Of a stretch of DNA of 64,000 nt, positions 2,798-43,843 are shown in pieces. Every line of letters starts with the position of its first letter. The stretch's first letter is position 1. Both the position numbers and the translations under genes were made by a program. The notes below the pieces were generated by a model. It made no database searches. It saw nothing but the letters and a program-made list of their open reading frames with translations, and was not told where the DNA came from. Source of the DNA: an uncultured bacterium (GTDB lineage: Bacteria > Hydrothermota > Tepidihabitantia > SM23-42 > CAYGYG01); the NCBI GenBank assembly GCA_964354155.1, contig CAYGYG010000007.1:49903-113902 (forward strand), given 5' to 3'.

Positions 2798-2856
2798 AAA
2801 GAATATCGGGCCAGGGCTGTATGGCCCTGGCCCGAATGTTTAAGGAGGCACGAATC

Positions 2857-3900: not shown

Positions 3901-4923
3901 GTGAAGACGTATTCAATGCCTAGAATCTGGCTCATGGTTTCTGTTTCATGCTGCTTTCTCGGGGCGAGTCAGCGAGCCGGTGCGGGATTCCTCCTGATAT
4001 GGCCCGGCGCGCGATCCACGTCCATGGCCGGGGCTTTTTCAGCGATCGCTGATGATGCCACAGCTTGTTACTATAATCAGGCGGGCCTGGCTTTTATGAA
4101 CGGTATTAACGCTTCCCTGCAACACTGTAACTGGCTGCCGGGGCTGGACAAGGGAATGTATTATGAATATGCCGGCGTCACCAAGTCGTTCACTAAGGGA
4201 ACAGCGGGAATCGATATTATCTATTTAACGACTGGTGAAACCAGCGTAGTGGGCGGTGACGGCACTCCGCAGGGAACATGTAAGGCCTTTGATATGGCCG
4301 CGGGTGTAAACTACGGCTTGAAGTTGAACCCGCGTCTGGGCATCGGTGCTGGTTGGAAGTTCATTTATTCATATCTGGTTGCTCCCTGGGTCTGGACGGC
4401 CATTCCAGATCTGCAGATAAGAGGCGGGGGAGTAGGATTGTCTTTCGCTTTCGACCTGGGGATGCTTTACAAACCCTCTGATTTATTCTCGTTCTCGACG
4501 GCCTTGCAGAACATCGGACCGAATATCAAGTACTGTGAAACCTCTACGGCAGATCCTTTGCCCTATACTCTCCGATTGGGTTTCAAACTCCAGCCCATCG
4601 AAACCAAAGCGATCAAGGGCACCCTTACGGCGGATATTACTAAAGTACTGGCGGGAATGTTTGGCTACCCCGACAAGAGCTCGCGCGAGAAGCTGAACTA
4701 TGAATTCAAAGAGGCCTGGAAGAGTGTTGGCCTTGAACTCAGCTACTTCGGCTTTGCCTTCATACGAGGCGGCTATTTCTCTGACTACGAGGGGTGCAGG
4801 AACGGATTCACATACGGTGCTGGGATCAAAGTCAAGGGATTTTCCCTGGACGTTGGAATAGACCAGGACCTCTATGGATTCAGCACCACCAACCAGAAGT
4901 TTTCCCTGTCCTGCCTACTTTAG
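3901..4923 (+). CDS. PorV/PorQ-family-like outer-membrane beta-barrel protein (second paralog), putative
   Basis: It has a signal peptide and the same N-terminal motif as the 1913-2797 paralog (GARSTSMAGAFSAIADDATACYYNQAGLA). It ends in an aromatic/hydrophobic C-terminal beta-strand (FSLSCLL). Confidence 0.5.
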   Translation: MKTYSMPRIWLMVSVSCCFLGASQRAGAGFLLIWPGARSTSMAGAFSAIADDATACYYNQAGLAFMNGINASLQHCNWLPGLDKGMYYEYAGVTKSFTKGTAGIDIIYLTTGETSVVGGDGTPQGTCKAFDMAAGVNYGLKLNPRLGIGAGWKFIYSYLVAPWVWTAIPDLQIRGGGVGLSFAFDLGMLYKPSDLFSFSTALQNIGPNIKYCETSTADPLPYTLRLGFKLQPIETKAIKGTLTADITKVLAGMFGYPDKSSREKLNYEFKEAWKSVGLELSYFGFAFIRGGYFSDYEGCRNGFTYGAGIKVKGFSLDVGIDQDLYGFSTTNQKFSLSCLL

Positions 4924-9583: not shown

Positions 9584-10237
9584 ATGTCTCTCCACGGAGG
9601 CAATTTGGGCTTCGATGATATTAAAAATGCCATTGTTGGATTCGACGATGATCGGATTAGAACCCTCGTGAATTTGGCGCTGAAAGAAGGGATTGCGCCG
9701 GCGGAGCTTTTGGAGAAGGGGTTAATCCCGGGCATGAAGGAAGTCGGAGAGCGGTTTGCTCGAAAAGAGTACTTCGTGCCGGAAGTATTGATGGCGGCTG
9801 AAGCGTTCTATGCGGGGTTCGACCTGGTGAAGCCCTTGATTAAGAGCACTGACCGGAAAGCAAGAGGCAAGATTGTGATCGGGGTTGTTGAGGGTGATAT
9901 CCACGATATCGGAAAGAATATCGTCAAGGTAATGCTAGAGGCTTCTGGGTACGAAGTGGTGGACCTGGGCAAGGACGTTCCGATCGCGAGGTTCATCGAG
10001 ACGGCCGCAAAGGAAAAACCGCAGGTTCTGGCCCTGTCCAGCCTTATGACAACGACAATGGTCAGAATGGGCGATGTGATTCAGGGGCTGCAAAAGAAGG
10101 GGTTACGTAAGGGCATCAAGATCATTGTCGGGGGCGCGCCAGTCAACCAGGATTTTGCCGACAAGATCGGGGCTGATGCTTATGGTGAGGATGCGGCCGC
10201 AGCAATGAAGGTGGTGGACAGCCTTCTGCAACCGTAG
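9584..10237 (+). CDS. Corrinoid (cobalamin-binding) protein of a methyltransferase system (MtmC/MtbC/MtaC-like)
   Basis: It has an N-terminal B12-binding cap followed by a Rossmann B12-binding domain. The DxHxxG motif is present (VEGDIHDIGKN), as is an SxL motif (ALSSLMTT). Confidence 0.8.
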   Translation: MSLHGGNLGFDDIKNAIVGFDDDRIRTLVNLALKEGIAPAELLEKGLIPGMKEVGERFARKEYFVPEVLMAAEAFYAGFDLVKPLIKSTDRKARGKIVIGVVEGDIHDIGKNIVKVMLEASGYEVVDLGKDVPIARFIETAAKEKPQVLALSSLMTTTMVRMGDVIQGLQKKGLRKGIKIIVGGAPVNQDFADKIGADAYGEDAAAAMKVVDSLLQP

Positions 10238-10302
10238 CGAGGGTTGTCGTTGGGGATAAACCCCAACGCTACAGTCTCGTAGCGCCGGGGCTCGTCCCCG
10301 GC
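10234..10302. repeat. REP-like intergenic palindromic element (GTAGCG...[GTTGGGGATAAACCCCAAC]GCTACAG...GTAGCG[CCGGGGCTCGTCCCCGG])
   Basis: Two hairpin modules are bracketed by GTAGCG/CGCTAC arms. The element overlaps the TAG stop codon of the corrinoid-protein gene. A second copy lies at 24119-24177. Confidence 0.6.
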
Positions 10303-10322
10303 AATTATGCATATGTTGATTT

Positions 10323-11246
10323 ATGAATAAAATTGAAGACGTTCTTAATAACAAAAAGGGATTCGCGGTCTTCCCGATTGTTTGTGCCGATCACTGTGCT
10401 CATTTGTCTAAAATGGATTTTGTTGAGATGGCGCACAGTGGCGAGAAGCTGGCGGAAGTCATAGAATATGGCTATCGCCTCTATCAGTACGACATGGTTT
10501 TGGTCTTTGTCGATGCCTATGTTGAGGCGCAGGCGATGGGCTGTGAGATAGAGTTTGTTCCGTATCCGAGACTTAAATCAGATACACACGGATTGAAGCG
10601 GATGCAAACGGATACGAACCGAACCGGTGAGATTATAAAGGCGGCAAAGATCCTTAAGAAGAAAGTTGATGTTCCAGTATTTGTTTCGATCAAGGGGCCC
10701 TTCACGCTTGCTGCCTTCCTAGCGGGCCTCGATGAATTTTTGAAGATGCTTATTCGAGATCCGGAGAAGGCCCAGGCGATCATCAAACAGGCGCTCGATT
10801 TCCAACTCGCGTACCTGGAGCGACTGCTTGAAGTCGATGCCGACATCTTCATCGGCGACCCGATCGCTTCGGCCAGCGTTATTTCTCCGAGGAGTTTTGA
10901 ACGGTTCGCGTTACCGGCGCTGAAAACCTTAATGGGGAAAATCAAAGACCAAGGACATGTGGGCGGCATTCACATCTGCGGCGAGACCGGACCGATCGCG
11001 ACGGCGCTTGATGAATGCCGCGTCGACATTCTCTCGATCGAAGACATAACGGTGCCGACCAAAACCTTGAAGATGGGCGGCGTGTCAACATCAACCATAC
11101 TTGGCGGCGACCGGTCGGCGATCGAGAGTGAAGTCGAGGCCGCGTTACGCGAGCCATATCTTATTGTCTCAACTTCATGCGATGTCCCGGTTGAGACGCC
11201 GGTGGAAAACATCAAGGCAATGATTGAATATGCCAGAAACTCGTAG
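10323..11246 (+). CDS. Uroporphyrinogen-decarboxylase (URO-D) family corrinoid methyltransferase (MtaA/CmuA-like)
   Basis: It has a URO-D-like TIM-barrel sequence with conserved blocks (DAYVEAQAMGCEIEF; IGDPIASASVISP; HICGETG). Confidence 0.75.
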   Translation: MNKIEDVLNNKKGFAVFPIVCADHCAHLSKMDFVEMAHSGEKLAEVIEYGYRLYQYDMVLVFVDAYVEAQAMGCEIEFVPYPRLKSDTHGLKRMQTDTNRTGEIIKAAKILKKKVDVPVFVSIKGPFTLAAFLAGLDEFLKMLIRDPEKAQAIIKQALDFQLAYLERLLEVDADIFIGDPIASASVISPRSFERFALPALKTLMGKIKDQGHVGGIHICGETGPIATALDECRVDILSIEDITVPTKTLKMGGVSTSTILGGDRSAIESEVEAALREPYLIVSTSCDVPVETPVENIKAMIEYARNS

Positions 11247-11318
11247 CCGTTCTATTCGTCGAGCCAGGTGCTGGCCTGGACATCCCGGTATTTTCATGAG
11301 TCGTAATGTGATGATTCT

Positions 11319-12686
11319 ATGATCTTGCTCGACCTGCTAATCAAGCGACGCAGCCTGATCCCGGCCGGATGCAGCGGCCGGGGTCGGTGCGGGCAGTGCC
11401 GGATAAAAATGGTTAAACCCCGGAAACCGGATGAGATTGAGCGCCAGCTCATCCCGTCCGCGGTTCTTGACCAGGGCTATCGTCTTGCCTGCAGAAGAGA
11501 AGCCCACGAGAAATTCGTGCCCCGAGTGCGGACCACGCCCCGGATCCGAACCAGCAAGAGCAAAGAAATCGGACTGGCCCTTGATCTGGGCACGACAACG
11601 ATCAAAGGGCTGGCGGTTGATCTTAGGAGCGGCCGGACCATTGGGAAGGAAGCGGTCTTCAATCCTCAGAACGTCTTGGGGGCTGATGTCATCTCCCGAA
11701 TCGGCGCCGCGCTTGAAGGGAAATACACCTATCTCAGAAAACTGCTGATGTCGGGAGTCGAGGAAGTCATCCGGCGGTTGGGGATCAAGCAGCCGGTCTT
11801 TACTGCGGTCGCGGCCAACCCGGTGATGCGGTCCTTCTATCTCAATGATGCAGTCCAGGGACTCGCCCAGTACCCCTTTGAGAGTGTCCGTCGCGAAGCC
11901 GTCTGGCTTAAGAACCCCACCCGGTACGTCTTCCCGGTTATCGGCGGATTCGTCGGCGGGGACACAATTGCGGGGTTGCTTGCCGACCGTACACTGGAGA
12001 CGCGCTGTACCGTTCTCTACGCCGATCTGGGCACGAACGGTGAAGTTGGGCTGGCCTGGGGCGGCAAGATCGTTCTGGTTTCAACCGCCGCCGGTCCGGC
12101 ATTCGAGGGGTCGGGCATCAAGGGCGGCAGTCTGGCGCTACCGGGGGCAATCGACCGCGTTGGCTATCAGGGTGGTTTCAGGATTCGGACGATCGGGAAC
12201 AGAAAACCGGTTGGCTTCTGCGCCTCGGGACTGCTTGACTTGCTGGCTGTTCTGCGGCGCCGTGGGTGGCTGACTCCGGACGGTCGGCTGATGAAGCCGG
12301 TGGAGATCGGCGGCATCGCGATTGAGCAACAAGCGATTCGGCAGCTCCAACTGGCCATCGGCGCCATCCACGTCGGCATCATGGTGCTGCTTCTCAAATA
12401 CTCGATAGCCCCGGCCGAAGTCAGCCGGGTTATCCTGACCGGTGAATTCGGCGCCCATCTCAATCCCCGATCCCTGGTCGAGGTGGGCCTGATACCAACA
12501 GGCATCAAGAAAATCTCTATGGCCAGCGACCTACCGCTGCAAGGCGCCCTGAAATTCTTGCTTGACGCCAACGGCCTGGACGCGGTGAAATTGGTTCATC
12601 GGAACGCCCATCATCTGGAACTGGCACAGGAACCGGCCTTCGAACGGCTTTTTATTAAATCGCTCAGGTTGGCGCCATGGGATTGA
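11319..12686 (+). CDS. RACo-type reductive activator of corrinoid enzymes (N-terminal [2Fe-2S] ferredoxin + ASKHA ATPase, DUF4445)
   Basis: A plant-type ferredoxin cysteine pattern (CSGRGRCGQC...AC) is followed by ASKHA phosphate-binding motifs (LALDLGTTTIKG; ADLGTNGEV). Confidence 0.75.
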   Translation: MILLDLLIKRRSLIPAGCSGRGRCGQCRIKMVKPRKPDEIERQLIPSAVLDQGYRLACRREAHEKFVPRVRTTPRIRTSKSKEIGLALDLGTTTIKGLAVDLRSGRTIGKEAVFNPQNVLGADVISRIGAALEGKYTYLRKLLMSGVEEVIRRLGIKQPVFTAVAANPVMRSFYLNDAVQGLAQYPFESVRREAVWLKNPTRYVFPVIGGFVGGDTIAGLLADRTLETRCTVLYADLGTNGEVGLAWGGKIVLVSTAAGPAFEGSGIKGGSLALPGAIDRVGYQGGFRIRTIGNRKPVGFCASGLLDLLAVLRRRGWLTPDGRLMKPVEIGGIAIEQQAIRQLQLAIGAIHVGIMVLLLKYSIAPAEVSRVILTGEFGAHLNPRSLVEVGLIPTGIKKISMASDLPLQGALKFLLDANGLDAVKLVHRNAHHLELAQEPAFERLFIKSLRLAPWD

Positions 12687-13921
12687 TCCCGTTAGAAATC
12701 GGCGACTCTATGTTGGGTCACTCATCATCTGATGCTGATGCGAGAGACCGGGGCAGATTTCTAACGGGGCTGACCCCATTAGAGACTAAGCATACAGAGC
12801 GTTGTGCGCCTGATGGTAAGGGCTGTCCTGAAAAGGGCGGCAAGTCTCTAACGAGACTGACCCCATTAGAGACTAACGAGTCGGAAGGTTGTCCCCGTGA
12901 GGCGGGTGCCTGTCCTGCTAACCCCAGCAAGTCTCTAACGGGGCTTATCGGCTACACGTGTTCGTACACGCCGGTCGAAATACTGTCGGCAACCGGCTTC
13001 AGGCCCTATCGGTTGCTGCACGGAGATAGCGGGCGGTCAAGCGCGGGCGAACTGTATGTGCGGATTGACTCCTGTCCGTTGGTTAGATCGAACATCCGGT
13101 ATCTTGTCGAAAACAAGGATGACTTTGTGGCAATTGTCGGTTCCAGCGGATGCGATATGGCGCGGCGGATGCTCGAAGTCGTCGCGTACGAGACGAAGAT
13201 GCCGACCTTTCTGTTCAATAATCCGAGGACCGATAACCGGCGGATGTTCAACGACGAGATTGACTGGCTGGTTCAGGAACTGGAACGTTTTTCAGGCCGG
13301 GACTTGTCGGACCAGGCGTTGGCGCGAGAAATCGACCGCTGGGAAAGCGCCCGCTCGGTTTTTCGAGGACTTGACGCAAAGCGCCGTAGTCGCCCTTCGA
13401 TGATTTCAACAACGCGGCTGCACCAGGCGGCGATGAGCTATCATCAGGGTGCACCGAATGCGGCGCGGGAAGTCCCGGAAGAGGCTTCGGATCGACCCAG
13501 GATCTACCTGATCGGCAGCCCGATATCCTATGAATCGACCCCGATATTGTCGCGGATCGAGGAACAACTGCGCATTGTCGGTGATTTCAACTGCGGCATC
13601 TCGCGGTTTGCGGACCTGAAGGTTGAAGAGAAGAGCCGGCGCGGTATCAAGCAGGCCTATTATGGCCAGACGGCGTGCATCGTCAAACGGCCGAACACTG
13701 CGTTCTACGACCGAATCTACCGAGAGATCAAGGATCGCGAGTGCGTCGGTGTTGTTGCCTGGACATTAGACTTCTGCGATGCGTTTGAATTCGAGCTCAA
13801 TCGAATGGAACGCAAGATCGGGTTACCGATGTTGCGACTGAAGAGCGATTTCTCGGTCCAGAACCTAGGCCAGTTGAAAACCAGGATCGGGGCCTTTACC
13901 GAGATGCTGGATCACGAATAG
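12677..13921 (+). CDS. 2-hydroxyacyl-CoA dehydratase / benzoyl-CoA reductase BcrB-like subunit (HgdB-like); start uncertain
   Basis: The conserved core starts near 12940 (LIGYTCSYTPVEILSATGF...SCPLVRS...SSGCD) with the cysteine ligands of the HGD-D family. The first ~85 codons of the ORF are a tandem hairpin repeat and may not be coding. Confidence 0.65.
   Translation: MGLIPLEIGDSMLGHSSSDADARDRGRFLTGLTPLETKHTERCAPDGKGCPEKGGKSLTRLTPLETNESEGCPREAGACPANPSKSLTGLIGYTCSYTPVEILSATGFRPYRLLHGDSGRSSAGELYVRIDSCPLVRSNIRYLVENKDDFVAIVGSSGCDMARRMLEVVAYETKMPTFLFNNPRTDNRRMFNDEIDWLVQELERFSGRDLSDQALAREIDRWESARSVFRGLDAKRRSRPSMISTTRLHQAAMSYHQGAPNAAREVPEEASDRPRIYLIGSPISYESTPILSRIEEQLRIVGDFNCGISRFADLKVEEKSRRGIKQAYYGQTACIVKRPNTAFYDRIYREIKDRECVGVVAWTLDFCDAFEFELNRMERKIGLPMLRLKSDFSVQNLGQLKTRIGAFTEMLDHE
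12688..12945. repeat. Tandem structured repeat (about 87-bp period, about 2.2 copies), each unit a nested hairpin (GTCTCTAA-CGRGRCTGACCCCA-TTAGAGAC), preceded by an inverted arm CCCGTTAGAAATC
   Basis: Direct repeat units lie at 12756-12787, 12844-12877 and 12931-12945. The arm at 12688-12700 is the reverse complement of the GATTTCTAACGGG at the start of the first unit. Confidence 0.6.
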
Positions 13922-13951
13922 CGCGAATGGCAGCGAATAGCAGGATGATCC

Positions 13952-15283
13952 ATGTTTGACGATCCCAGACCCAGAAAGATTACGCTCCATGAATGGAGCG
14001 AGCAGTTTCGGCAGCTCGACGAGAGCATCATCAGGCAATTCACCTATTACGGCAATCCGCAATGGGGCAACTACCTTTCACCGCCGGCAACATTCATGGT
14101 TTATGGGGCGAAGGAGCTGAAGCGACTGCGACTGGATAACTCGCTGGCTGCGCTTCGCCTCTGGGGCTTCGTTTTCAACGAATCCGAGAGATTGTTTCGG
14201 GCTCGCCAGGTCGGCAAGAAGGTTATCGCGACGATGGGCGATTTGGGCATCGTGCCGGCCATCGTCATGGCCTTCCCGGATTGTGTGCCTTTCTATCCGG
14301 AGTGTATCTGGTGGACGCCCTTTTTTAGGGAATCCAAAGACCTGCTCCATACCGCGACCATGCTGGGCACCCCTGAAGCCAGCTGTTTTGTCCGTGCCGC
14401 CCTTGCGGCATTCTACAAGAAGGCCTATTTCCCCAATCCGGACTTGCTGATCGGCTCAACCGGCGCTTCGTGCGATGACTATTCCGGCGTGATGCAGCTG
14501 GTCGAAGATCTGGGCCATGAGGTGCTGTGGGTCGAAATACCGATGAGGAAAGGCGCTCGAGCCGAAGAATATCTGCTAGCTGAGTACGAGCGAATCTTAG
14601 GGAGAATGAAACAGTTGACCGGGGTTGCGTCGGATCGTGGATTGATCGAGAGCATCCAGAAAGCCAACCGATTGAGAGGGACGGTCAAGAAGTTGAAACA
14701 GCTCTGCTACAACGCCCCGATTGCGCCTCTGCCTGCGCTGGAATTGATGACGATTGAGTTTGGGAATATGTACGGCTACGGCGATTTCGATGAATGGACA
14801 AGAATCGTGGAAGCGGTGTACGAGACGGTCGAACAGCGGGTCGCCCTGAAACGCGGCGTGCTTAATGCGGACGCGGTGCCGATTGCCTGGGTGAGCCCAT
14901 CGCCGGATCCGTACGTGCTCAATCTGGTTGAAGACCTCGGCGGCCGGGTTGTCGCGACCGAATACGTGATCAACCAGGCTCTCGTCGAGATCGACGAGAG
15001 TATCGAGCCGGTGCGGGCGCTGGCCCGGGCTTTTCTGCAGGCTTCGCTCATTGGCTCGACCGAGGAGAGGGTTGGCAGAATCCGAAAGCAGATTGAGGCC
15101 GGCACGGTGCGCGGGGTTCTGATCACCAACTCAATGGGTGCGTCCCACTGTGCGATGGAGACGCGGCTGATCGAGAAGATGCTGGGTAAGGTTCCGGTGC
15201 TTTCGATCGACATCCCGGAGCCGTTCGGCATCTCCGGGCAGGTTCGAACCCGGCTTGAGGCCTTTATGGAAATGATTGGATAA
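13952..15283 (+). CDS. 2-hydroxyacyl-CoA dehydratase / BcrC-like subunit (HgdA-like)
   Basis: It shows HGD-D family conservation (FPDCVPFYPECIWW; GASCDDYSG) and directly follows its partner subunit. Confidence 0.65.
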   Translation: MFDDPRPRKITLHEWSEQFRQLDESIIRQFTYYGNPQWGNYLSPPATFMVYGAKELKRLRLDNSLAALRLWGFVFNESERLFRARQVGKKVIATMGDLGIVPAIVMAFPDCVPFYPECIWWTPFFRESKDLLHTATMLGTPEASCFVRAALAAFYKKAYFPNPDLLIGSTGASCDDYSGVMQLVEDLGHEVLWVEIPMRKGARAEEYLLAEYERILGRMKQLTGVASDRGLIESIQKANRLRGTVKKLKQLCYNAPIAPLPALELMTIEFGNMYGYGDFDEWTRIVEAVYETVEQRVALKRGVLNADAVPIAWVSPSPDPYVLNLVEDLGGRVVATEYVINQALVEIDESIEPVRALARAFLQASLIGSTEERVGRIRKQIEAGTVRGVLITNSMGASHCAMETRLIEKMLGKVPVLSIDIPEPFGISGQVRTRLEAFMEMIG

Positions 15284-15474
15284 GCGAATGACTCAAATGA
15301 CAGCGAATGACTCGAACAGCGAACCTACGACACGTTTTGTCATTGCGAGTCCCTGTGGGACGTGGCAATCTCATTCTCATGCAGAATCGTGTACTGTAAC
15401 GGTTGGATTCATCCGATGTGATGCAGCATCATTCGCCAAGGTCGCTGGAATCCGTCATATTCGCGAGTGATGGC

Positions 15475-16500
15475 ATGAAGGATATTTTAACTCCCCGAGA
15501 ACGATTCGGTCTGCTCATCATTGACGAGAAGCCGGATCGATGCAATGTCATCCCGCTGATCACGTCACATGCGGCCATTGTCGCCGGAGTATCGGTTAAG
15601 AAGTACTACACGCAGGGCGAAGTAATGGCCCGGGCGCAGCTTGCGGCCATCGAAGAGTACGGCCATGATGCGATTTCGATCTTCTCGGAGGTCGGCATCC
15701 TGGCCGAGGCCATGGGCTCGAAGTTCGAATACCCGGAAGATGACCTGCCGATCTTCAGGGAGCCGGCCTTAGGCAAAGCCGGGCCTGAAACGCTGTCAAC
15801 ACCCAATCCGACCCAAACCGGGCGCTTGCCCGTCTATCTTGAAGCGATCCGCTGTGCTTACGATGCAGTCGGGGATACTATCCCGGTGCTTGCTTACGTG
15901 CCGGCGCCGTTCACGACCGGAATGATGCTCTGTCAGCCGGAGCAGTTCCTGATTGACCTGGCGCGGAATCCGGCACGGGTTGATGCCATTATGCAAAAAG
16001 CATTGGATGCTGCGATCGAGTTCTGCTACGAAATAATCAATGCTGGAGGCCTGCCGGTCCTGGTCGATCCACTGGCCTCAGGGAGTGTCATCAGCCCGGC
16101 AACCTATCGGAAATTCGCTCTGCCGTACGAAGCCGAACTGATAAAATTTCTTCACCGGTACGATCTCGACATTATTCTCCATATCTGCGGTGATACGAGG
16201 CCGATCGTTGATATATTGCCCGAGACCGGGGCCGACCTGATGAGCTTCGATCATCTGGGAATCGACGTGGCCCTGGAGCGGTTGTCAGGCCGGATGCGTT
16301 TGATAGGTAATTTCGACACGTCCCGTCTGGTCCTGTCTTCAGCTGATGTAATCGGCCGGGAAGTGGGCGCAATGGTCGCGGGCGCGAAGGAGGCTGGGAG
16401 AGGTTACGTCGCATCCACTGGCTGCGAGGTGCCTTTATGCGCGCCGCGCGACAATGTTTTGGCCTTTGTCAAAGCCGCCAAAGAAGCCGGAGCCTATTGA
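15475..16500 (+). CDS. URO-D family corrinoid methyltransferase (second MtaA/CmuA-like paralog)
   Basis: It contains URO-D-like blocks (LTPRERF; VDPLASGSVISP; HICGDT). The ATG at 15475 (MKDILTPRERF) fits the family N-terminus better than the upstream ATG at 15403. Confidence 0.7.
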   Translation: MKDILTPRERFGLLIIDEKPDRCNVIPLITSHAAIVAGVSVKKYYTQGEVMARAQLAAIEEYGHDAISIFSEVGILAEAMGSKFEYPEDDLPIFREPALGKAGPETLSTPNPTQTGRLPVYLEAIRCAYDAVGDTIPVLAYVPAPFTTGMMLCQPEQFLIDLARNPARVDAIMQKALDAAIEFCYEIINAGGLPVLVDPLASGSVISPATYRKFALPYEAELIKFLHRYDLDIILHICGDTRPIVDILPETGADLMSFDHLGIDVALERLSGRMRLIGNFDTSRLVLSSADVIGREVGAMVAGAKEAGRGYVASTGCEVPLCAPRDNVLAFVKAAKEAGAY

Positions 16501-20262: not shown

Positions 20263-21372
20263 CTACTCGAAGAGCTTCAAGTATTCGGCGTAGCCTTCCT
20301 TCACCAGATCCTCCTTAGGGATGAAGCGGAGCGAGGCGGAATTGATGCAGTAGCGCAAACCGGTCGGGGCAGGCCCGTCATCAAAGACATGGCCGAGGTG
20401 GGAATCAGCGTGCTTGCTTCGTACTTCGGTCCGGACCATCCCTTGGTTCGTATCTGGCTTTTCGACGACCACCGCGGCGTCGATAGGCTTGGTGAAGCTG
20501 GGCCAGCCGCATCCGGAGTCGAACTTGTCTTTCGAGCTGAAGAGCGGTTTGCCAGAGACGATATCGACGTAGATCCCGTCGCGCTTGTTGTTCCAGTATT
20601 CGTTGCCGAAAGGTCGTTCGGTTTGGTTTTCCTGGGTTACCGTGTACTGAAGTGGGGTCAGTCGTTTCTTCAACTCCTCGGCCGAGGGTTTGATATGCGG
20701 GTTATTATTCATCGATAACTCCTTTTTTTCTTCACGGCCCCAGGTCTTCTTGATGTAGGCGTCACGGCCCGACAGGAGTCGATAGCTCTTGTAGCGCACC
20801 GGGCACTTCTTGTAGTAGTCCTGATGATATTCCTCGGCGGGGAAAAACTCGGTCAACTTGAGAATCTGGGTCGCGATCTCTTTCTTGAACCGACCGCTCT
20901 CTTCAAGGGACTTCTTCGACGCCTCGGCCAGCCTCTTCTGGTCGTCGCTCGTGTAGAAGATCGCGGTCTGATATTGGCTCCCGCGGTCCGCAAATTGGCC
21001 GCCGGCATCGGTGGGATCGATCTCGTGCCAGAACACATCGAGCAGTCTCTCATAGCTTGTTCGTTTTGGATCGTACGTGATCTGAACCGCTTCAGTGTGG
21101 CCGGTTGTCCCGGAACAGACCTCTTCGTAGGTGGGATTCCTGACCGTACCCCCGGTGTAGCCCGCGGTCACCTCAATAACCCCTTCAATCTTTTCAAAAG
21201 GCGCCTCAAGGCACCAGAAACAGCCGCCGGCAAATACGGCCTTGGCCAGCTTGGCGTCCGGGCCAGTAGCCGCCTTTGCTTTCTTGGACGACGGACTGCT
21301 TTGAGAGAAGCTCAACAGTACCGGCATGAAAACTACAAATAAAGTCAGCGTTTTCATTATTGTGTTCTCCAT
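20263..21372 (-). CDS. msrAB: Bifunctional peptide-methionine sulfoxide reductase MsrA/MsrB with signal peptide
   Basis: It has the MsrA motif GGCFWC and the MsrB motifs CGWPSF and RYCINS. A signal peptide is present at the N-terminus. Confidence 0.9.
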
Positions 21373-23426: not shown

Positions 23427-23936
23427 ATGGATATCAAGGCGATTCTGGACGGAATGAAGATTGCTCTGCAGACTGAGCTGAATGGCATTCAGTTCTACAA
23501 GACAGCGGCCGAGCATACCGAAGACAAAAAGGGTAAAGAGACTTTCCAACTGCTGGCCGGTGATGAAGCCCGCCATTTCGTAGCGTTGAAAAAGCAGTAC
23601 GATGCTTTGGCCAAGTCAGGCAAGTGGGCCGAACCAGTTGAGCTTGGTGATGCCTCAATCCTCAAAGGACCCAGTCCGATCTTCTCAGACGAATTCAAGG
23701 CGGGCATCAAGGACCGGCACTACGAGATGTCCGCACTGAGTATTGGCGCACTGCTGGAAACGAATTCGATTGATTTCTACAGGAAGATGAAGGAGCAGGT
23801 AAGCGACCCGCCGGCGCGTCGGCTTTTTGAAGAACTCCAGAAGTGGGAGGAGAATCACCTGTCGGCAATCGTTGCGCAGCTCAATCTGGTTAAAGAAGAT
23901 TACTGGGCTCAGGCTAATTTTGTACCGCTGTTCTAA
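23427..23936 (+). CDS. Ferritin-like/rubrerythrin-family diiron protein
   Basis: It has paired E...ExxH helices (ELNGIQFY...GDEARHF; LLETNSIDFY...WEENHL). Confidence 0.6.
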   Translation: MDIKAILDGMKIALQTELNGIQFYKTAAEHTEDKKGKETFQLLAGDEARHFVALKKQYDALAKSGKWAEPVELGDASILKGPSPIFSDEFKAGIKDRHYEMSALSIGALLETNSIDFYRKMKEQVSDPPARRLFEELQKWEENHLSAIVAQLNLVKEDYWAQANFVPLF

Positions 23937-24707: not shown

Positions 24708-25649
24708 ATGATTAAACCAATAGCCATTGGCCGCCGAGTGCCGTTTTTCGTGCTTAAAGACCAGAATGGTAGCGACGTGCGGATGAGCAAGCTGGCGGGC
24801 AAGCGTGTTTTGCTGTCGTTTCACCCGCTGGCATGGACGAAAATATGCTCTCGACAAATGAAGTCGCTGGAAAAGAATCAGTCCGTATTCGACAAGCTGA
24901 GGACGCTTGCATTGGGCCTGAGTGTCGATACGATACCATCCAAATTCGCATGGGCTAGGTCGCTGTCGATCAAGAAGACGCAGTTGCTGTCGGACTTCTG
25001 GCCCCATGGGCAGGTGGCCAAGAGACTCGGCCTATTCCGCGCCAAGCAGGGATTCTCGGAGCGAGCCAACGTTGTCATCGACGAAAAGGGAAAGGTAGTA
25101 TTTGTAAAAGTCTACCCGATCAAGGAACTTCCTGATATCAAGGAGATAATCAGTTTTCTCAAGGGTGCTGGCACGGTCAAGGGTGATTTGGACAAGCTTC
25201 TGGTCGCGGCCATGGAGAGCGAGGTGATGGCTCAGAAATTTTATACGAAGGCGGCGGCCCGCGCGGCAAGCGATACCGGAAAGGAATTCTTCAACGAATT
25301 GGCTGCATTCGAACACTTCCATTATGAAAATGTGAAGAAAATAATCGAATCTCGGAACAAAAACCGGACGTTAAGGCTGACTGGTCCGAAGCCAAGATTG
25401 AGGGAGGTTACGTCGGAAGTGAAGGGCGAGTTTGAGCCTAATAAGGATGAAATCATTAATGTGTTGGGTCTGGCAATCAGAGCGGAGAAGGAAGCGCAGG
25501 AAAGGTACAAGAGAATAGCGCGGATGATGGAAGACGATGAAGGCAGGGAAATATTCAGCGGTCTGGCCCACGATGAATTCCGCCACCAGCGCTTGCTTGA
25601 AGACCAGCTCTACCAGATATCCAACCGGGGAACGATAATCTGGGAATAA
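24708..25649 (+). CDS. Peroxiredoxin (AhpC/TSA, Bcp-like) fused to a C-terminal ferritin-like/rubrerythrin diiron domain
   Basis: The N-terminal part has 'FHPLAWTKICSRQ' (peroxidatic T-x-x-C). The C-terminal part has two E...E/HxxH helices (ESEVMAQKFY...FEHFHYENV; AEKEAQERY...AHDEFRHQ). Confidence 0.7.
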   Translation: MIKPIAIGRRVPFFVLKDQNGSDVRMSKLAGKRVLLSFHPLAWTKICSRQMKSLEKNQSVFDKLRTLALGLSVDTIPSKFAWARSLSIKKTQLLSDFWPHGQVAKRLGLFRAKQGFSERANVVIDEKGKVVFVKVYPIKELPDIKEIISFLKGAGTVKGDLDKLLVAAMESEVMAQKFYTKAAARAASDTGKEFFNELAAFEHFHYENVKKIIESRNKNRTLRLTGPKPRLREVTSEVKGEFEPNKDEIINVLGLAIRAEKEAQERYKRIARMMEDDEGREIFSGLAHDEFRHQRLLEDQLYQISNRGTIIWE

Positions 25650-27885: not shown

Positions 27886-28449
27886 ATGTCGCTAAAGGAA
27901 ATAATCGATGCGCGTCGTGCCTATCGTTCCCTGGAGCGGATTGAAATCTCCGCGGACCTGATCGCGGACTTGGGCGAACACGCAAGATTGTCGCCTTCGT
28001 GTTTTAATAACCAACCCTGGCGATATGTTTTCGTAAGAGACCGGACGATTCTCGGGAAATTCCGGGAAGCTCTGGCCAAGGGCAATGAATGGGCCAACGA
28101 TGCTTCCATGATTGTGGTCGTCTATACCCGCAAGGAACTCGACTGCGACGTAAAAGGCCGGGAGTATTTCCTTTTTGACACCGGTATGGCCACGGCCTTC
28201 ATGATCTTACGTGCCACCGAATTAGGATTGGTGGCGCATCCGATTGCCGGCTACCACGAAGACAAGGTGAAAGAAATCGTCGAACTGCCCGGTGATGTGC
28301 AAGTCATTACCCTGGTTATTGTCGGCAAACACTCAGGCGAGATAAAGCCGGTCCTGTCGGAAAGACAGGTTGAGTGGGAGAAGACCCGGCCCGACCGCCT
28401 GCCCCTGAAGAAATTCGTCTTTTTCGACCGGTACGAGGCGGACAAATGA
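27886..28449 (+). CDS. Nitroreductase-family protein
   Basis: It has the nitroreductase fold signature (RRAYRSL...SPSCFNNQPWRYVFV). Confidence 0.8.
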   Translation: MSLKEIIDARRAYRSLERIEISADLIADLGEHARLSPSCFNNQPWRYVFVRDRTILGKFREALAKGNEWANDASMIVVVYTRKELDCDVKGREYFLFDTGMATAFMILRATELGLVAHPIAGYHEDKVKEIVELPGDVQVITLVIVGKHSGEIKPVLSERQVEWEKTRPDRLPLKKFVFFDRYEADK

Positions 28450-29681
28450 TGGATGTTTATCTTGATAACCATTCGGCAACCAGGCTGGACGACCGGGTCT
28501 TGAACGACATGATGCCGTACTTGCAGGGCGAGTACGGTAACGCCCAATCGATGCATGATCCGGGCAGCCGGGCCAAAGATGCGATTGAAAAGGCCCGGGA
28601 CCAGGTTGCGCGCTTGATTCATGCGCGACCCGAAGAGTGCTACTTCACTTCATGTGGTTCGGAGGCGAACAACCTGGCGATCAAGGGCAGTGCCCAGGGA
28701 CTTGCCGAAAAGGGGAAGCACATTATTGTGTCGAGCATTGAGCACTTCTCCGTGCTCTACGCGGCACGGCGGTTGGCGCAGCAGGGATACGAGACTACCT
28801 TCCTGCCGGTTGACAAGGACGGGTTGGTCACCCCGGGTGCGGTTCGGGAGGCAATGCGGAGCGATACGGTGTTGGTTTCGGTCCATCATGCCAACTCCGA
28901 GATCGGCACGGTTGAACCGATTGAAGAAATAGGACGGATCTGTCATGAAAAAGATGTGCTCTTTCATACCGATGCCATTGCGACATGCGGAATTCTGCCG
29001 GTCGAGGTGAAGGCTCTCAATGTCGACCTGCTCAGTATCGCGGCCTCGCAATTTCATGGCCCGAAGGGAGCCGCTGCTCTGTTCGTAAGAAAGGGTCTCC
29101 GCGTCATTCCGCAGATCGACGGCGGCGTCCAGGAGAGTGGGCGCCGGGCCGGGACCGAGAATGTCGCCGCGATCGTTGGTATGGGTAAGGCCTGTGAGAT
29201 TGCCCAATCCGAGATGGCGGCGAATCGCCTCAAGATAACGGGATTGCGCGACCGGCTGGTCCGAGAACTGCCCAGGTATATCGACTACGTCTATCTCAAT
29301 GGACATCCTGAGAAGCGGCTGCCGGGGAATGTCAATTTTTCCGTAGAGTTTGTCGAAGGCGAGGGGCTGCTCCTGCTTTTAAACGAGAAGGGCATCTATG
29401 TTTCAAGCGCCTCGGCGTGCGCATCCAAGGCGCTCAAGATGTCCCATGTGCTGACGGCGACGAACATTGACGCCGCGGTCGGCCAGGGAACCATACTGAT
29501 GACGTTCTCCAAGTACAATACCGAGAGCGATGTCGATTATGTGCTCAAGGAGTTTCCGCCGGTGGTGAAGAGGCTGCGGGAGCTTTCTCCGCTCTATGCG
29601 TATTTTCTCAAAACGGGCAAACGGCAGGCCGCGGGTCCGGGCACTGACTACGAACGCAGGCACGAAGGCGAAGAAGAATAG
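28446..29681 (+). CDS. Cysteine desulfurase (NifS/IscS family)
   Basis: It has the PLP-binding motif (SASQFHGPKG with lysine) and the active-site loop SSASACAS. Its ATG overlaps the nitroreductase stop (ATGA). Confidence 0.85.
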   Translation: MMDVYLDNHSATRLDDRVLNDMMPYLQGEYGNAQSMHDPGSRAKDAIEKARDQVARLIHARPEECYFTSCGSEANNLAIKGSAQGLAEKGKHIIVSSIEHFSVLYAARRLAQQGYETTFLPVDKDGLVTPGAVREAMRSDTVLVSVHHANSEIGTVEPIEEIGRICHEKDVLFHTDAIATCGILPVEVKALNVDLLSIAASQFHGPKGAAALFVRKGLRVIPQIDGGVQESGRRAGTENVAAIVGMGKACEIAQSEMAANRLKITGLRDRLVRELPRYIDYVYLNGHPEKRLPGNVNFSVEFVEGEGLLLLLNEKGIYVSSASACASKALKMSHVLTATNIDAAVGQGTILMTFSKYNTESDVDYVLKEFPPVVKRLRELSPLYAYFLKTGKRQAAGPGTDYERRHEGEEE

Positions 29682-34215: not shown

Positions 34216-34311
34216 GCGAGTTAACATTAGTTGGATTCGCGAATTGCGAAACAGGTGGCGGGCCCATAATGAGGCATGCGGCATCATGTGAAAACAACAA
34301 GGAGGTCTAAT

Positions 34312-36534
34312 TTGAAGACGAAGTGTCTGCTCCTTACTCTGCTTCTATTAGTGACAGCTGGGCTTGCCGACTGGGAAGCGGTCGGTCCGTACGGGGGATA
34401 CCTGCGCTCGGTCGTCGTGTCGCACACCAACGATAATATCGTCTACGCGGTATCGTACAACTACCCGGCGCAGTACGCACGATCGACCAACGGCGGAGCC
34501 ACCTGGACGACCATGGGCGGCATCCCGAGTAACGCCTACGCCACGGCGATCGACCCTACCGATCATAACAAGCTCTACACCGGCGGCGGCTCCTATTTCT
34601 ACCGTTCGACGAACGGCGGCACGACCTGGCTCAGCACCTACGCATCAAACACATATCCGTACGGGATGGTCGTGAATAGTTCGACGCCCACGACCGTGTA
34701 TGGGGCCGGCTACACCTACGACGGCACCAAGTGGCGCATGTCATTCTACAAGAGCAGCAACAGCGGCGCGAACTGGAGCACAACCTATCTGGCCGACAGT
34801 GCGAGTTACGCCTACTGCATCGGTCTTGACCGAACCAATCCCAGCAACATCTACGTCGGCGGCTACACCTACATGAACAGCACGTACTATCCCATGATCT
34901 ACAAATCAAGCAACGGCGGTACGAATTGGACCCAGCTGACCAATGGCATCCCAACGTCCGGGTACTACGTATATTCGGTGGCGGTGCATCCGACCAACTC
35001 GAACATCGTCTATCTCGGCATCTACACGGCAGGGATCTACCGGTCAACCGACGCCGGCGCCTCGTGGACCCAGGTTTCGACCCACTACTACAACTATGCC
35101 ATGGCCACGAGCATTGCCGACCCAAATGCTGCCTTGGTCACCGGCTACAATGACGCGTACAAGACGACGAACGCCGGTGCGACCTGGTTTGCCGACACGG
35201 TCGGGTTCAAGGGATTGAGTGCCTTCGGTCTGGCCATGAGCCAGACCAATGGACAGGTTGCCTATGTCGGTGACAACATGGGTGCTTTCAAGACGACCAA
35301 TGGCGGGACACGGTGGTTTTCGACCAACAACAATCTTAACCTCGGGGCGATCGCCAGTTTTGCGGTGGCACCTTCGTCACCGGCGACGATCTATACTTCG
35401 TTTGAGGAAGTTGGTGTGTTCAAAACGACCAACAGCGGCACGTCGTGGACTCAATTGCCGACCCCGGTGGCCTGTGGCAACATCTGTGAATTTGCCGTCC
35501 ACCGGACCAGCCCGCTTGTTGTCTACGGGTTGGAAGGCGCAGGCTGAGGCAACGCCGAGCTCTACAAGAGCACAGACGGCGGGGCCGTCTGGTCAAGTGC
35601 GCTAGATAGTTACTATGCCGATGGCGGTGCCTTAATAATCGATCCGAACAACAACTCGGTGTTGTACAGCGGTGGTGCGATTTACGACGGATCGACTTAT
35701 CTGATGGGCGTGTCGAAGTCGACCGATGCCGGTGTAACCTGGAGCCGCGATACGCTGACCACGGCCTACAGTGTCACCTACGCGCTGGCGGTCGATCGCA
35801 GTAATTCGAATGTCGTCTACGCCGGCGGCTATACCGGCCTGTACAAGAGTACCGACGCTGGCAATACTTGGTTTCAGTCCTCAATCGGGCTTACCGGACA
35901 GGTATACGACATTGCAGTCGCTTCAACTAAGGCCAATATCGTCTATGCCGGATCCAGTGCGGGTGTGTTCAAGTCGACCAATGCCGGTGCGTCCTGGACC
36001 AATACCGGGTGCACCGGGGTGAACGCAGTTCTCATCAATCCCAGTAACGAGAATGAGATATATGCCGCGACGTCGAGCGGTGTATTCAAGAGTACCACCG
36101 GAGGCGGCGGATGGACGGCGATGAACGCCGGCCTTCAAAGCCTGAACACGACATCGCTCGGGATCTACCCGGCGCAGTATCTTTACACGGGTACGGACGG
36201 TGCCGGCCTATATCGCTGGAGCTTCCTGCTCGGGACACAAGAACAGGAACCCAGCCAGGGCAGGACGGTCTTGGCGGCACAGCCCAATCCTTGCCGGGGC
36301 CGGACCCAGATCACGTACCAGCTGGTACGCACGGTCAAGGTCAATCTTGGGGTGTACGATGCGCAAGGCCGACTGGTTAGACAGCTGGCGTGCGGCGAGC
36401 AGCCCCAGGGCGTACATTCAGTGGCCTGGGATGGTCTTGATCGACGTGGCGACCGGGTCGCCAACGGCGTCTATTTCTGCAGACTGAAGGCGGATGGACT
36501 GAAGCAGATGCAGAAACTGGTGATCGTTGAGTAG
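34312..36534 (+). CDS. BNR/Asp-box repeat secreted protein with T9SS C-terminal domain; single in-frame TGA at 35545-35547 (candidate selenocysteine or nonsense)
   Basis: An AAGGAGG ribosome-binding site plus a TTG start at 34312 gives the signal peptide MKTKCLLLTLLLLVTAGLA. ORFs 34276-35547 and 35659-36534 are in the same frame. The repeat protein runs continuously across the TGA (...VVYGLEGAG-U-GNAELYKSTDGGAVWS...). The C-terminal domain matches the T9SS pattern (GVYFCRLKADGLKQMQKLVIVE). Confidence 0.5.
35573..35591 (+). promoter_or_regulatory. SECIS-like hairpin downstream of in-frame TGA (CAGACGGC-GGG-GCCGTCTG)
   Basis: It has a perfect 8-bp stem and a GGG loop. The loop lies 34-36 nt 3' of the TGA at 35545. 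Confidence 0.3.
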
Positions 36535-41893: not shown

Positions 41894-43843
41894 ATGAAAA
41901 CTAAGATAATTCTGCCATTGTTTCTTGTTGCTCCGTTACTTTTTTCCGGCATTGACAATCTTCGCTTTCTTGGTCACAACGAAGTGAACCGGGCCCACCT
42001 TATGGACGCTGAGGTGGTGGGGACTCGCGCCTATCTCTGCGTCGGGATGAATCCCGGTCTTGAAGTCTACAACATTGCGAATCCGGCGAGTCCAACGCGG
42101 CTGTACCAGGCAGGACCGGCGGCCTGGCGGTGCTTTGCTGACCGTGACACGACGCTCTTTCTCTTCTGTCGGCGTGACGGTGTCATTCTCTATGATATCT
42201 CTGGCGCCGGCGCCCCGGGTCAGCTCGGGCAATACGATCCGCCCGGCAATCTCGAGGCGTTGGAGGGTGGAGATTTGATCGGCGATACCCTCTATTGTGC
42301 GGCGCACCAGAACGGCATCTATGCGATCGATATCACGAATCCCTCCAATCCGACCAAGGTCGGACAGATTTCGCTTGATACCTCTGCCGCCTGGAATGTC
42401 GAAGCCCGGGACTCGTTTCTTTTCGTCGCCAACGGCCGGTTCGGTCTCTCGGTTGTGGGCGTGCGGGGCGGCATGCACCTTATGTCGCGCCTGGCTCTGC
42501 CGGGGCTGGCCAATGACATCGTGCTCGACGGTAATGTCGCCGCTGTATCATTAGGCGGGCACGGCCTGGCTACGGTTGATATCAGCAATCCTCATGCCCC
42601 GGTTCTGCTTGACACGGCCATGACCGCGGGCGCGGTCTGGGGTTCAGGCATCACCGGCCATCAGGTTGTTACAGGTTCATGGTACGTTCTTGAGACCTTT
42701 GACGTCTCCGTCCCGGCCAACATCGTACGGACCGGCTGGGACAACACCAAGACTTTTGCCCACGGTGCCGACATCAGGAGTGACAGCTTGATCGCGATCG
42801 CCGATTGGCGCGGCATGTCTTGCTACCACATCGGTAGTGATCTGGGTGCCGATATCGATCTTGAGTTTGAGACTCTCGACTTCGGAGCGGTGCCGGTTTC
42901 GCGCGACACAACGGTTCTGGTGCGTAACACCGGTAGTGTGGCCCTTAACGTTACCTCGATTCGTGTTCCGGCCGGTATCTCGGCGACGCCCAATTCATTT
43001 ACGGTTCAGCCGGGCGACTCCGTTTCGGTACGGGTAACGGCGGCCGGTCCAGGGGCAGTCTCCGACACCATCATTTTCAACTCCAATGACCCGGATGAAG
43101 CCCGAAAACTGCAAGAAGTGTACAAGAATAACACGTCGTTTCCTCAATACGGTTCGATCGCACCCGACTTCACGCTCCAGGGGACCGACGGGCGGAGCCA
43201 CACCCTGTCCGCATATCGAGGCAAGGTTGTCTTTCTCCAGTTCGGTGGAGGGTGGTGACCGCTCTGCGGATCGCAGGCTGCGATCACCGACGGCTCGATT
43301 TTTTCACGCTATGACACTTCACGGGTCAGGATCTTTGAGATCGGTTCGAATTCCGGCGAACTCGCCGAATTCATTCAGGTCTTTGGCCAGCGCTACGTCG
43401 GCTTGACCGATAATATCGGGGTCTATTCAACCTACCGCGTGCCCCGGCCCGAGGCCCCTTACCCGCAAGACTACATCATTGATCAGCAAGGCATTGTCCG
43501 ATACTGGTCGGATGAATATGACCCGCAGAGAATAATCAAAATCGTTGACCGGTTGCTAGTAACCGGCGTAGAGGAGAATCCACGCGAAGTGGTCCAAAAA
43601 GGCCCAGAGCTCAGGATCTACCCGAATCCGACTCGTAACGCGGTCACCATTCAAGCAACAGGTTTGGCCAAAGGCGGATTTTCGGTCAGGATCTACGATT
43701 CCAGCGGACGGATGGTCCAGGACAATCACTTCGTTGATGACGGCAAGATGCCGTTGCGTCTGAAGTTGCCGGCCGGTGTCTATTTCGTCTGCATTGAATC
43801 AGCAGGAGTGTTAACCAGAACCAGCATGATTGTTGTCAAGTGA
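41894..43843 (+). CDS. Multidomain T9SS cargo: LVIVD-repeat beta-propeller + thioredoxin-fold (TlpA/redoxin-like) domain with candidate selenocysteine (TGA 43256-43258, W-U-P-L-C) + T9SS C-terminal domain
   Basis: LVIVD-like repeats are present (YAIDITNPSNPTKVGQ; ATVDISNPHAPVLL). ORFs 41894-43258 and 43403-43843 are in the same frame. Across the TGA the sequence reads ...IAPDFTLQGTDGRSHTLSAYRGKVVFLQFGGGW-U-PLCGSQ...PQDYIIDQQGIVRY. This matches the TlpA/ResA pattern APDFTL..DG....LS..RGKVV.LNFWASWCGPC...P..FLID..G.I with U in place of the first Cys. The C-terminal domain matches the T9SS pattern (IYPNPTRNAVTI...GVYFVCIESAGVLTRTSMIVVK). Confidence 0.6.
43269..43285 (+). promoter_or_regulatory. 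SECIS-like hairpin downstream of in-frame TGA (GATCGCA-GGC-TGCGATC)
   Basis: It has a perfect 7-bp stem and a GGC loop. The loop lies 18-20 nt 3' of the TGA at 43256. Confidence 0.35.

Follow-up and report, generated by a model that had tools for sequence, protein, structure and literature searches.

Does the TGA at positions 43256-43258 of this DNA end a gene, or is it read as an amino acid? The triplet is located in the 64-kb window (the whole 64,000-nucleotide stretch of contig CAYGYG010000007.1 from an uncultured bacterium that was analysed here), in frame between an open reading frame (ORF) at 41894-43258 and a continuation that runs to the real stop at 43841-43843, and it is the single internal TGA in the one frame spanning 41894-43843. 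Read through, this gene comprises 649 codons, starts with the ATG at 41894, has the UGA as codon 455, and would encode an exported protein with a redoxin domain. The data described below suggest that UGA-455 is decoded as selenocysteine (Sec, U) through a selenocysteine insertion sequence (SECIS) within the coding region, a reading to which we assign a probability of roughly 0.88. The gene and its decisive elements are the following.

41894-43843, plus strand: complete predicted selenoprotein gene, 649 codons plus stop, UGA at codon 455; orthologues share this layout
43256-43258, plus strand: in-frame UGA, predicted selenocysteine and nucleophile of U-P-L-C, aligned with the first Cys of WCxxC
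43256-43267, plus strand: redox motif U-P-L-C, predicted Sec455 to Cys458; the family consensus is U-P-[LI]-C
43841-43843, plus strand: true terminator, a TGA without SECIS-like context, which ends the gene

A preliminary description of the locus, made from the letters alone, had reported two same-frame ORFs parted only by this TGA, and the 649-codon read-through frame bears this out. Codons 445-460 read ...VVFLQFGGGW-UGA-PLCGSQ..., the sequence past the TGA being PLCGSQAAITDG, and the UGA-spanning peptide of the read-through product is VVFLQFGGGW-U-PLCGSQAAITDGSIFSR. The same description held that the downstream half possesses neither a start codon nor a signal peptide of its own. A signal peptide is indeed lacking; the first part of the statement was incorrect, as an in-frame TTG at 43403 opens an ORF of 146 amino acids, and this TTG sits in the middle of the redoxin domain. 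This genome uses TGA as a normal stop codon, since the 41894-43843 gene itself ends with one. As the ordinary genes of the window are moreover intact under code 11, a genome-wide reassignment of TGA (code 4 or 25) was rejected; about one third of the orthologues likewise end with TGA.

Domain scans against Pfam and NCBIfam (release 20) were performed with the read-through protein in which U was replaced by C. They indicate the following modules downstream of a putative signal peptide.

41894-41950, plus strand: predicted signal peptide of the general secretory (Sec) type, MKTKIILPLFLVAPLLFSG, residues 1-19, read by eye
41960-42832, plus strand: LVIVD-repeat beta-propeller, residues ~23-313 (PF08309, E = 5.5e-13)
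42854-43126, plus strand: Ig-like domain (HYDIN/VesB/CFA65-like, 'choice-of-anchor D'), residues ~321-411 (PF22544, residues 321-402, E = 3.2e-09)
43151-43504, plus strand: redoxin domain with thioredoxin fold (AhpC/TSA, TlpA/ResA-like), residues 420-537, spanning the UGA (PF00578)
43616-43840, plus strand: type IX secretion system (T9SS) type-A C-terminal sorting domain, residues 575-649 (PF18962, TIGR04183)

At the N-terminus, a basic n-region together with a hydrophobic core and small residues suggests a signal peptide, the N-termini of the homologues are similar, and in the AlphaFold (AF2) model the propeller is preceded by a helix of low confidence (residues 6-16). This model, which comprises residues 1-454 (predicted local distance difference test score 88.6), consists of an all-beta-blade propeller followed by a beta-sandwich, and a Foldseek search with it returned generic propellers only and no functional lead. 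For the Ig-like domain, the NCBIfam model choice_anch_D yielded 29.2 bits, which is under its cut-off. PF00578 (AhpC-TSA; cut-off 26 bits) matches the redoxin domain with 47.1 bits and E = 2.8e-12 over positions 2-123 of the 124 in the profile, and PF08534 matches it with 30.5 bits against a cut-off of 26.6. The best NCBIfam redoxin match was the ResA subfamily (NF002854; E = 1.3e-11) with 44.8 bits, short of the cut-off of 170; as judged from these profiles, the domain is not a ResA orthologue, though it would work like ResA/TlpA. The sorting domain at the extreme C-terminus exceeds the cut-offs of both models, with 41.1 bits for PF18962 (cut-off 27) and 39 bits for TIGR04183 (cut-off 23).

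In the alignment with solved structures, FGGGW[U]PLC matches FTASWCGVC (2ls5), FWGTWCPHC (ResA, 3c71) and FWASWCPYC (3hdc), and the segment YPQDYIID matches the cis-Pro segment LPTTFLIN of ResA. As the domain spans the UGA and aligns with ResA/TlpA-like structures in this manner, the UGA coincides exactly with the position of the nucleophilic Cys in WCxxC redoxins. Hence, three proposals of the preliminary description, namely a TlpA/ResA-type redoxin block across the TGA, the position of the TGA on the first Cys of the CxxC motif, and a T9SS C-terminal domain in the downstream half, were all confirmed.

The arrangement of the domains also bears on the possibility that termination at this codon is genuine, which would result in a 454-residue propeller/Ig product, with the downstream part remaining untranslated or being expressed from an internal start. 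All gene callers annotate a stop at this UGA, and TTG, GTG and ATG codons are present in frame downstream. However, a stop at this position would interrupt the thioredoxin fold after beta1 and ahead of the active-site helix, and it would generate an upstream product that has a signal peptide but no sorting domain and a downstream product that has a sorting domain but no signal peptide.

A search with the read-through sequence against 5.8 billion proteins yielded 112 family members with 40-88% identity, 108 of which are called as proteins of ~458 residues ending in ...F(G/T)xxW, the same endpoint as that of the window ORF. DNA was retrieved for 27 loci of GTDB species genomes and for 28 metagenome loci. 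The codon following the conserved W is TGA at every one of them (27/27 and 28/28, respectively; 56/56 with the window), and the same holds for a relative of only ~35% identity (L124), which reads FWATW-TGA-PVCGPQ in the same architecture and raises the count to 57/57. The true terminators of the orthologous genes are TAG (24), TGA (18) and TAA (10). The preliminary description had named homologues that end at this position as a finding that would speak against it; 108 database proteins do end there, yet the DNA continues in frame, and they seem to end at this site because the gene callers stopped at the same UGA. Its question whether homologues carry Cys at this position is answered in the affirmative by the ResA/TlpA-like structures and in the negative by the orthologous loci whose DNA was read, all of which have TGA.

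A sequencing or assembly error or a recent pseudogene, with TGC or TGT as the true codon, has to be considered, as the finding hangs on a single base in a metagenome-derived contig. However, 56 further loci, assembled independently and belonging to several lineages of phylum rank, have the same codon across 40-88% protein identity. The recurrence of this TGA at orthologous loci excludes error and pseudogene for all practical purposes, and the chance that either applies is negligible.

Downstream of the UGA, the orthologues read U-P-[LI]-C-x-x-Q-A-A-x-D..., and the frame extends over the remainder of the redoxin domain. At least 90% of 50 family sequences possess the resolving Cys. The majority of the members terminate with a sorting domain of the T9SS type; among 50 orthologue downstream halves, 24 contain FlgD_ig, 13 Por_Secre_tail and 2 CHU_C. 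The mean entropy at codon positions 1, 2 and 3 amounts to 0.93, 0.81 and 1.41 bits downstream of the UGA and to 0.64, 0.64 and 1.42 bits upstream of it, and this comparison indicates that the downstream frame is under protein-level (purifying) selection. In addition, the 105 residues following the UGA were compared with 1.84 billion representative proteins by an exhaustive HMMER search, which returned 127 proteins, 125 of them with at most 360 residues. Nearly all matches begin within the first ~40 residues of their protein, several of which start with 'MCGP...'; therefore, these short proteins represent ORFs called just after the UGA, and the search retrieved only post-UGA fragments of this family type.

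Taken at face value, 125 short proteins starting just past the UGA in the representative library would be in line with genuine termination followed by internal initiation. However, the called internal starts differ among the homologues, the internal stop is always TGA whereas the real terminators vary, and the downstream codon-position entropy is typical of a translated gene. We therefore regard genuine termination as very improbable. The domains across the UGA and the conserved downstream frame support the earlier claim that the gene makes sense only as one read-through protein.

The database records of the family members are labelled candidate division WOR-3 (now Caldifarciminota), Stahlbacteria, Eisenbacteria, Gemmatimonadota and Phycisphaerales, and two closed WOR-3 chromosomes of 2.4-3.3 Mb carry the family, CP070680.1 at about 566-568 kb and CP070802.1 at about 2.147 Mb. 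Six loci from metagenome-assembled genomes labelled Phycisphaerales or Gemmatimonadota (L010, L012, L019, L021, L059 and L067) keep the UGA and the redoxin domain and have a different C-terminal region of ~100 residues with no detectable T9SS sorting domain. Within the redoxin coding sequence of the WOR-3 bin69 orthologue (L006, 11716-11802), ARAGORN called an 87-nt 'tRNA-Pro', which is most likely a false positive.

If the UGA is decoded as selenocysteine, a signal should reside in the mRNA next to it. The preliminary description had pointed to a 7-bp hairpin with a GGC loop 18-20 nt downstream, and this hairpin is present as described.

43269-43285, plus strand: apical hairpin of the predicted bacterial SECIS; the 7-bp stem, closed by a GGC loop, begins 10 nt downstream of the UGA
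43256-43297, plus strand: extended, weaker lower helix of the minimum free energy (MFE) structure, which takes in the UGA

The stem is formed by GAUCGCA (43269-43275) and UGCGAUC (43279-43285), and the loop GGC occupies 43276-43278. A perfect Watson-Crick hairpin at this offset is found at 0.1% of the window positions for at least 7 bp, at 0.36% for at least 6 bp and at 1.1% for at least 5 bp. When 53 distinct sequences were aligned without gaps, the 7-bp helix had a standard pair in 98.1% of the cells, as compared with 21-58% in slid controls. Compensatory changes were observed in 4 of the 7 pairs (among others CG to GC or GU at 20-36 and CG to UA at 23-33), and the covariation score was reached by none of 500 shuffles. 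The compensating bases occupy the wobble position of Ala codons and follow changes at the second position of Gly, Pro and Leu codons, a behaviour that, judged from the alignment, is not expected from selection on the protein. Moreover, the third-position entropy at codons +4 to +8 is 0.58, 0.00, 0.39, 0.00 and 0.77 bits (mean 0.36), as compared with an average of 1.4 bits both up- and downstream of the UGA. The pairs of the lower helix are partly conserved (14-41 in 28/28 sequences, 15-40 in 23/28 and 17-38 in 25/28, the others poorly). Across all DNA examined, the pattern of a UGA followed by the same hairpin apex matched only members of the family.

A bacterial SECIS is a stem-loop immediately 3' of the UGA, the apical loop of which lies at a distance of ~16-37 nt and contains a G. 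The element in the window has its loop at +18 to +20, a paired stem and frozen synonymous sites. In the E. coli fdhF mRNA, the apical stem-loop is bound by SelB, and a spacer of ~11 nt is needed. The fdhF element, as read from NC_000913, consists of the UGA, 11 nt and GGUUGCAGGUCUGCACC, and the window gene shows the UGA, 10 nt and GAUCGCAGGCUGCGAUC. The apex GCAGG.CUGC is common to both hairpins, and GCAGGCUGC in the window resembles GCAGGUCUGC of fdhF at nearly equal spacing. Unlike the fdhF SECIS, the window hairpin has no evident bulged U, and binding of SelB to it is a prediction. Taken together, the conserved UGA, the conserved downstream frame, the covarying hairpin and the suppressed synonymous variation correspond to the standard in silico proof of a selenoprotein, and these comparative data support the decoding of UGA-455 as selenocysteine.

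A scan of the window for same-frame ORF pairs joined by one TGA revealed two further T9SS-cargo genes.

34276-36534, plus strand: BNR-family gene, a read-through T9SS cargo with TGA at 35545-35547; signal peptide, BNR/sortilin repeats and FlgD_ig/Por_Secre_tail sorting domain
2821-3891, plus strand: beta-helix gene, the third candidate, with TGA at 3394-3396; signal peptide, beta-helix and T9SS-type sorting domain

The BNR-family gene reads ...VYGLEGAG-UGA-GNAELYKSTDGG... around its UGA, and 42 of its best 120 homologues are called as proteins of 413-438 residues that end in ...EGxG. TGA is present in all homologous copies read (7/7; 8/8 with the window), and the terminators are TAA or TAG. 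Downstream of the UGA, ACAGACGGCGGGUCCGUCUGG is almost invariant at the nucleotide level, and the hairpins are conserved. At two loci the family occurs as tandem paralogues, each split at the same TGA (L116, 7333-9567 and 9793-12060; L123, 10001-12244 and 12319-14589). One homologue has GGA (Gly) at this site (P0241) and another one Pro (P0242); therefore, the putative selenocysteine of the BNR family does not occupy a classical Cys position. A conserved CGxxC is located ~22 residues upstream. On these grounds, the BNR family is probably a second, undescribed family of secreted selenoproteins.

The beta-helix gene reads ...NYMCWFGSC-UGA-EPYWGEFSPSPGTGN..., with EPYWG directly after the UGA, and homologous, full-length beta-helix cargo proteins match it on both sides of the TGA. 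The UGA is followed, at a distance of 10 nt, by a 6-bp hairpin (GGGGAG/CUCCCC, loop AGUU), which has the same +13 offset as that of the redoxin gene. We found no close homologues of this gene, and the distant ones have V, Y, S or P at the UGA position. On present sequences this UGA is a candidate for selenocysteine, which would generate a 'CU' dipeptide, and equally a candidate for an error or a pseudogene. The second UGA-containing cargo family and the hairpin of the third gene argue that the organism decodes selenocysteine.

Several observations weigh against selenocysteine at codon 455. The fold of the window sequence alone is ordinary (MFE -16.1 kcal/mol, z = -0.88), and Rfam, applied with gathering thresholds to the whole window and with E <= 10 to the site, yielded no SECIS family and one spurious match to a long non-coding RNA. 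The loop comprises 3 nt (GGC; GUC or AGG in some members) as compared with GGUC in fdhF, and most members are without the loop U. A full-length Cys-form, the absence of which is atypical for selenoproteins, was not found among the 112 closest homologues from the 5.8 billion proteins, nor was a Cys-form of ~650 residues among the matches in the 1.84 billion representatives. Clustering of the gene neighbourhoods of 27 loci gave no conserved partner and none suggesting a redox partner. One orthologue (L016, 11321-11332) reads U-P-V-V and thus lacks the resolving Cys, and another one (L061, about 976-1090) contains a premature in-frame TAG 36 codons past the UGA. Finally, the 64-kb window and ~945 kb of DNA flanking the family genes were searched for the selenocysteine machinery; tblastn with the E. 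coli K-12 proteins (NC_000913) revealed no SelA, SelB or SelD, and ARAGORN no tRNA-Sec. As these flanks amount to at most ~20 kb per locus, which is less than 1% of a closed WOR-3 chromosome of 2.4-3.3 Mb, only a small sample of each genome was covered, and the result is uninformative rather than negative. The searchable literature held nothing relevant on selenocysteine in WOR-3 lineages.

The missing machinery in the window and in the ~945 kb flanking the family genes is also a point in favour of SelB-independent read-through, according to which a near-cognate tRNA (Trp, Cys, Arg or Gly) would decode the UGA, with the hairpin as a generic stimulator and a full-length product formed without selenium. 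In all cases the UGA is followed by C, a context in which termination is leaky, and the Gly codon GGA at the UGA position of one BNR-family homologue points in the same direction. However, the UGA lies on the catalytic Cys of WCxxC, where only selenocysteine or Cys gives a working enzyme, and were Cys wanted, some TGC or TGT would be expected, whereas 57/57 codons are TGA. Moreover, the spacing and the apex of the hairpin match a known SelB-binding SECIS. In view of these data, we consider SelB-independent read-through improbable and favour the insertion of selenocysteine.

How might such a protein be made, and what could it do? During translation, UGA codon 455 would be decoded as selenocysteine, with the hairpin 10 nt downstream within the coding sequence serving as the signal; as in E. 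coli fdhF, this hairpin would recruit SelB carrying Sec-tRNA(Sec). The signal peptide would direct the product to the Sec translocon, and the T9SS sorting domain would target the folded protein for passage through the outer membrane, either to the surface or into the medium. The LVIVD propeller and the Ig-like domain probably constitute a binding platform, and the selenol/thiol pair W-U455-P-L-C458 in the TlpA/ResA-type domain would represent the redox centre. The product may thus act as a selenenylsulfide-forming oxidoreductase, with extracellular protein disulfides, polysulfide or sulfur, and peroxides as conceivable substrates. Where an over-oxidised thiol finds no reductase system to rescue it, selenocysteine keeps its nucleophilicity, and its oxidation is reversible. 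It may have been retained here since it would remain reactive and reversibly oxidised at a site where no cytoplasmic repair system is at hand, and the finding of no Cys orthologue suggests that the selenol is indispensable.

A broader and more tentative proposal, which we hold to be somewhat less probable than its converse, is that a T9SS-exported 'surface selenoproteome', with several unrelated UGA-containing cargo families per genome, exists in bacteria of the WOR-3 type and in their relatives. It would comprise the redoxin, the BNR/sortilin-propeller family with selenocysteine beside CGxxC, and possibly the beta-helix protein with its C-U dipeptide, each with the UGA upstream of the sorting domain. 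If so, selenium chemistry would be deployed outside the outer membrane, and the selenium supply would decide between a secreted form with the sorting domain and a truncated form that is retained.

Is such a protein without precedent? Thioredoxin-fold selenoproteins with a UxxC motif have been predicted before, namely a 'Prx-like thiol:disulfide oxidoreductase' (PF00578) and a 'thiol-disulfide isomerase-like / TlpA-family' protein (cd02966) (PMC13188914 Table 1, PMC1088965). They share with the window protein the AhpC/TSA-type thioredoxin fold, selenocysteine as the first residue of UxxC, and a coding-region SECIS just past the UGA. Cys-forms exist for these proteins, whereas none was found for the window family, and, unlike in them, the redoxin in the window is the third module of an exported protein of ~650 residues. 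Reference members of these predicted families are WP_010940744.1 and MGB1650493.1. NCBIfam (release 20) contains no model specific for the window family.

The ResA/TlpA-like reductases (3c71, 1st9, 2ls5, 3hdc, 2yp6 and 4hqz) have the same fold, the W-C-x-x-C position and the cis-Pro loop in common with the window protein, and they are extracytoplasmic as well. However, they employ Cys and are small, membrane-anchored proteins or lipoproteins of the periplasm or wall, whereas the window protein has a predicted selenocysteine and a signal for export across the outer membrane, and its neighbourhood contains no conserved partner gene. ResA/TlpA-like reductases are recharged by CcdA/DsbD.

An exported selenoprotein that was likewise annotated as two ORFs split at the UGA is MccSep of Geobacter sulfurreducens (gsu2937-2936), for which selenocysteine was proven experimentally (PMC13510729). 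MccSep carries a signal peptide, as is predicted for the window protein; it differs from the window protein in being a periplasmic multihaem cytochrome and neither a redoxin nor a T9SS cargo.

With T9SS type-A cargo the window protein shares a sorting domain that exceeds the cut-offs; it has a putative signal peptide at its N-terminus, similar cargo genes are numerous in its surroundings, and PorV-like genes are present in the window. Its host belongs to a WOR-3-like lineage and not to the Bacteroidota. The window is rich in cargo genes with FlgD_ig or Por_Secre_tail domains, and two genes resemble PorV.

1913-2797, plus strand: PorV-like gene (PF19572, 28.5 bits against a cut-off of 27, just over it)
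3901-4923, plus strand: PorV-like gene (PF19572, 30.2 bits against the same cut-off, just over it)

These two genes flank the beta-helix candidate and suggest that the genome encodes components of the T9SS.

The searchable literature contains no description of selenoproteins with T9SS signals or with LVIVD repeats. The preliminary description had called an extracellular selenocysteine-containing cargo very unusual, which is fair with respect to T9SS cargo and unfair with respect to exported or UxxC redoxin selenoproteins, as both are already known. New features are the domain architecture and the sorting signal for the T9SS, as well as the restriction of the family to selenocysteine, the breadth of the mis-annotation and the occurrence of several UGA-containing cargo families in one genome. 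More than 100 database entries from several uncultured lineages are annotated as hypothetical proteins of ~455 residues and are predicted here to be redox enzymes of ~650 residues. This would be the first selenoprotein family found with a type IX secretion signal, and selenocysteine chemistry at or beyond the outer membrane raises the question of its reductant there. The absence of Cys-forms makes the family a clean case for asking why selenocysteine is indispensable. Together with the second UGA-containing cargo family, it suggests that the availability of selenium could control the secreted proteome of these sediment and subsurface bacteria.

Further genes of the window are the following.

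20263-21372, minus strand: MsrA-MsrB fusion with an N-terminal extension of ~42 residues, oxidative-stress set
23427-23936, plus strand: rubrerythrin, oxidative-stress set
24708-25649, plus strand: AhpC/TSA-rubrerythrin fusion, oxidative-stress set
28374-29681, plus strand: class-V aminotransferase (PF00266, a family that includes cysteine desulfurases and selenocysteine lyases)
9584-16500, plus strand: B12-binding protein, two URO-D/MtaA-like methyltransferases, a RACo-like corrinoid activase and two HGD-D (2-hydroxyacyl-CoA dehydratase-like) genes

An exported MsrAB would be conceivable as a client of an extracytoplasmic redoxin. A cysteinyl-tRNA synthetase (CysRS) is also encoded in the window. 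The cluster at 9584-16500 looks like an anaerobic corrinoid-dependent methyl-transfer module.

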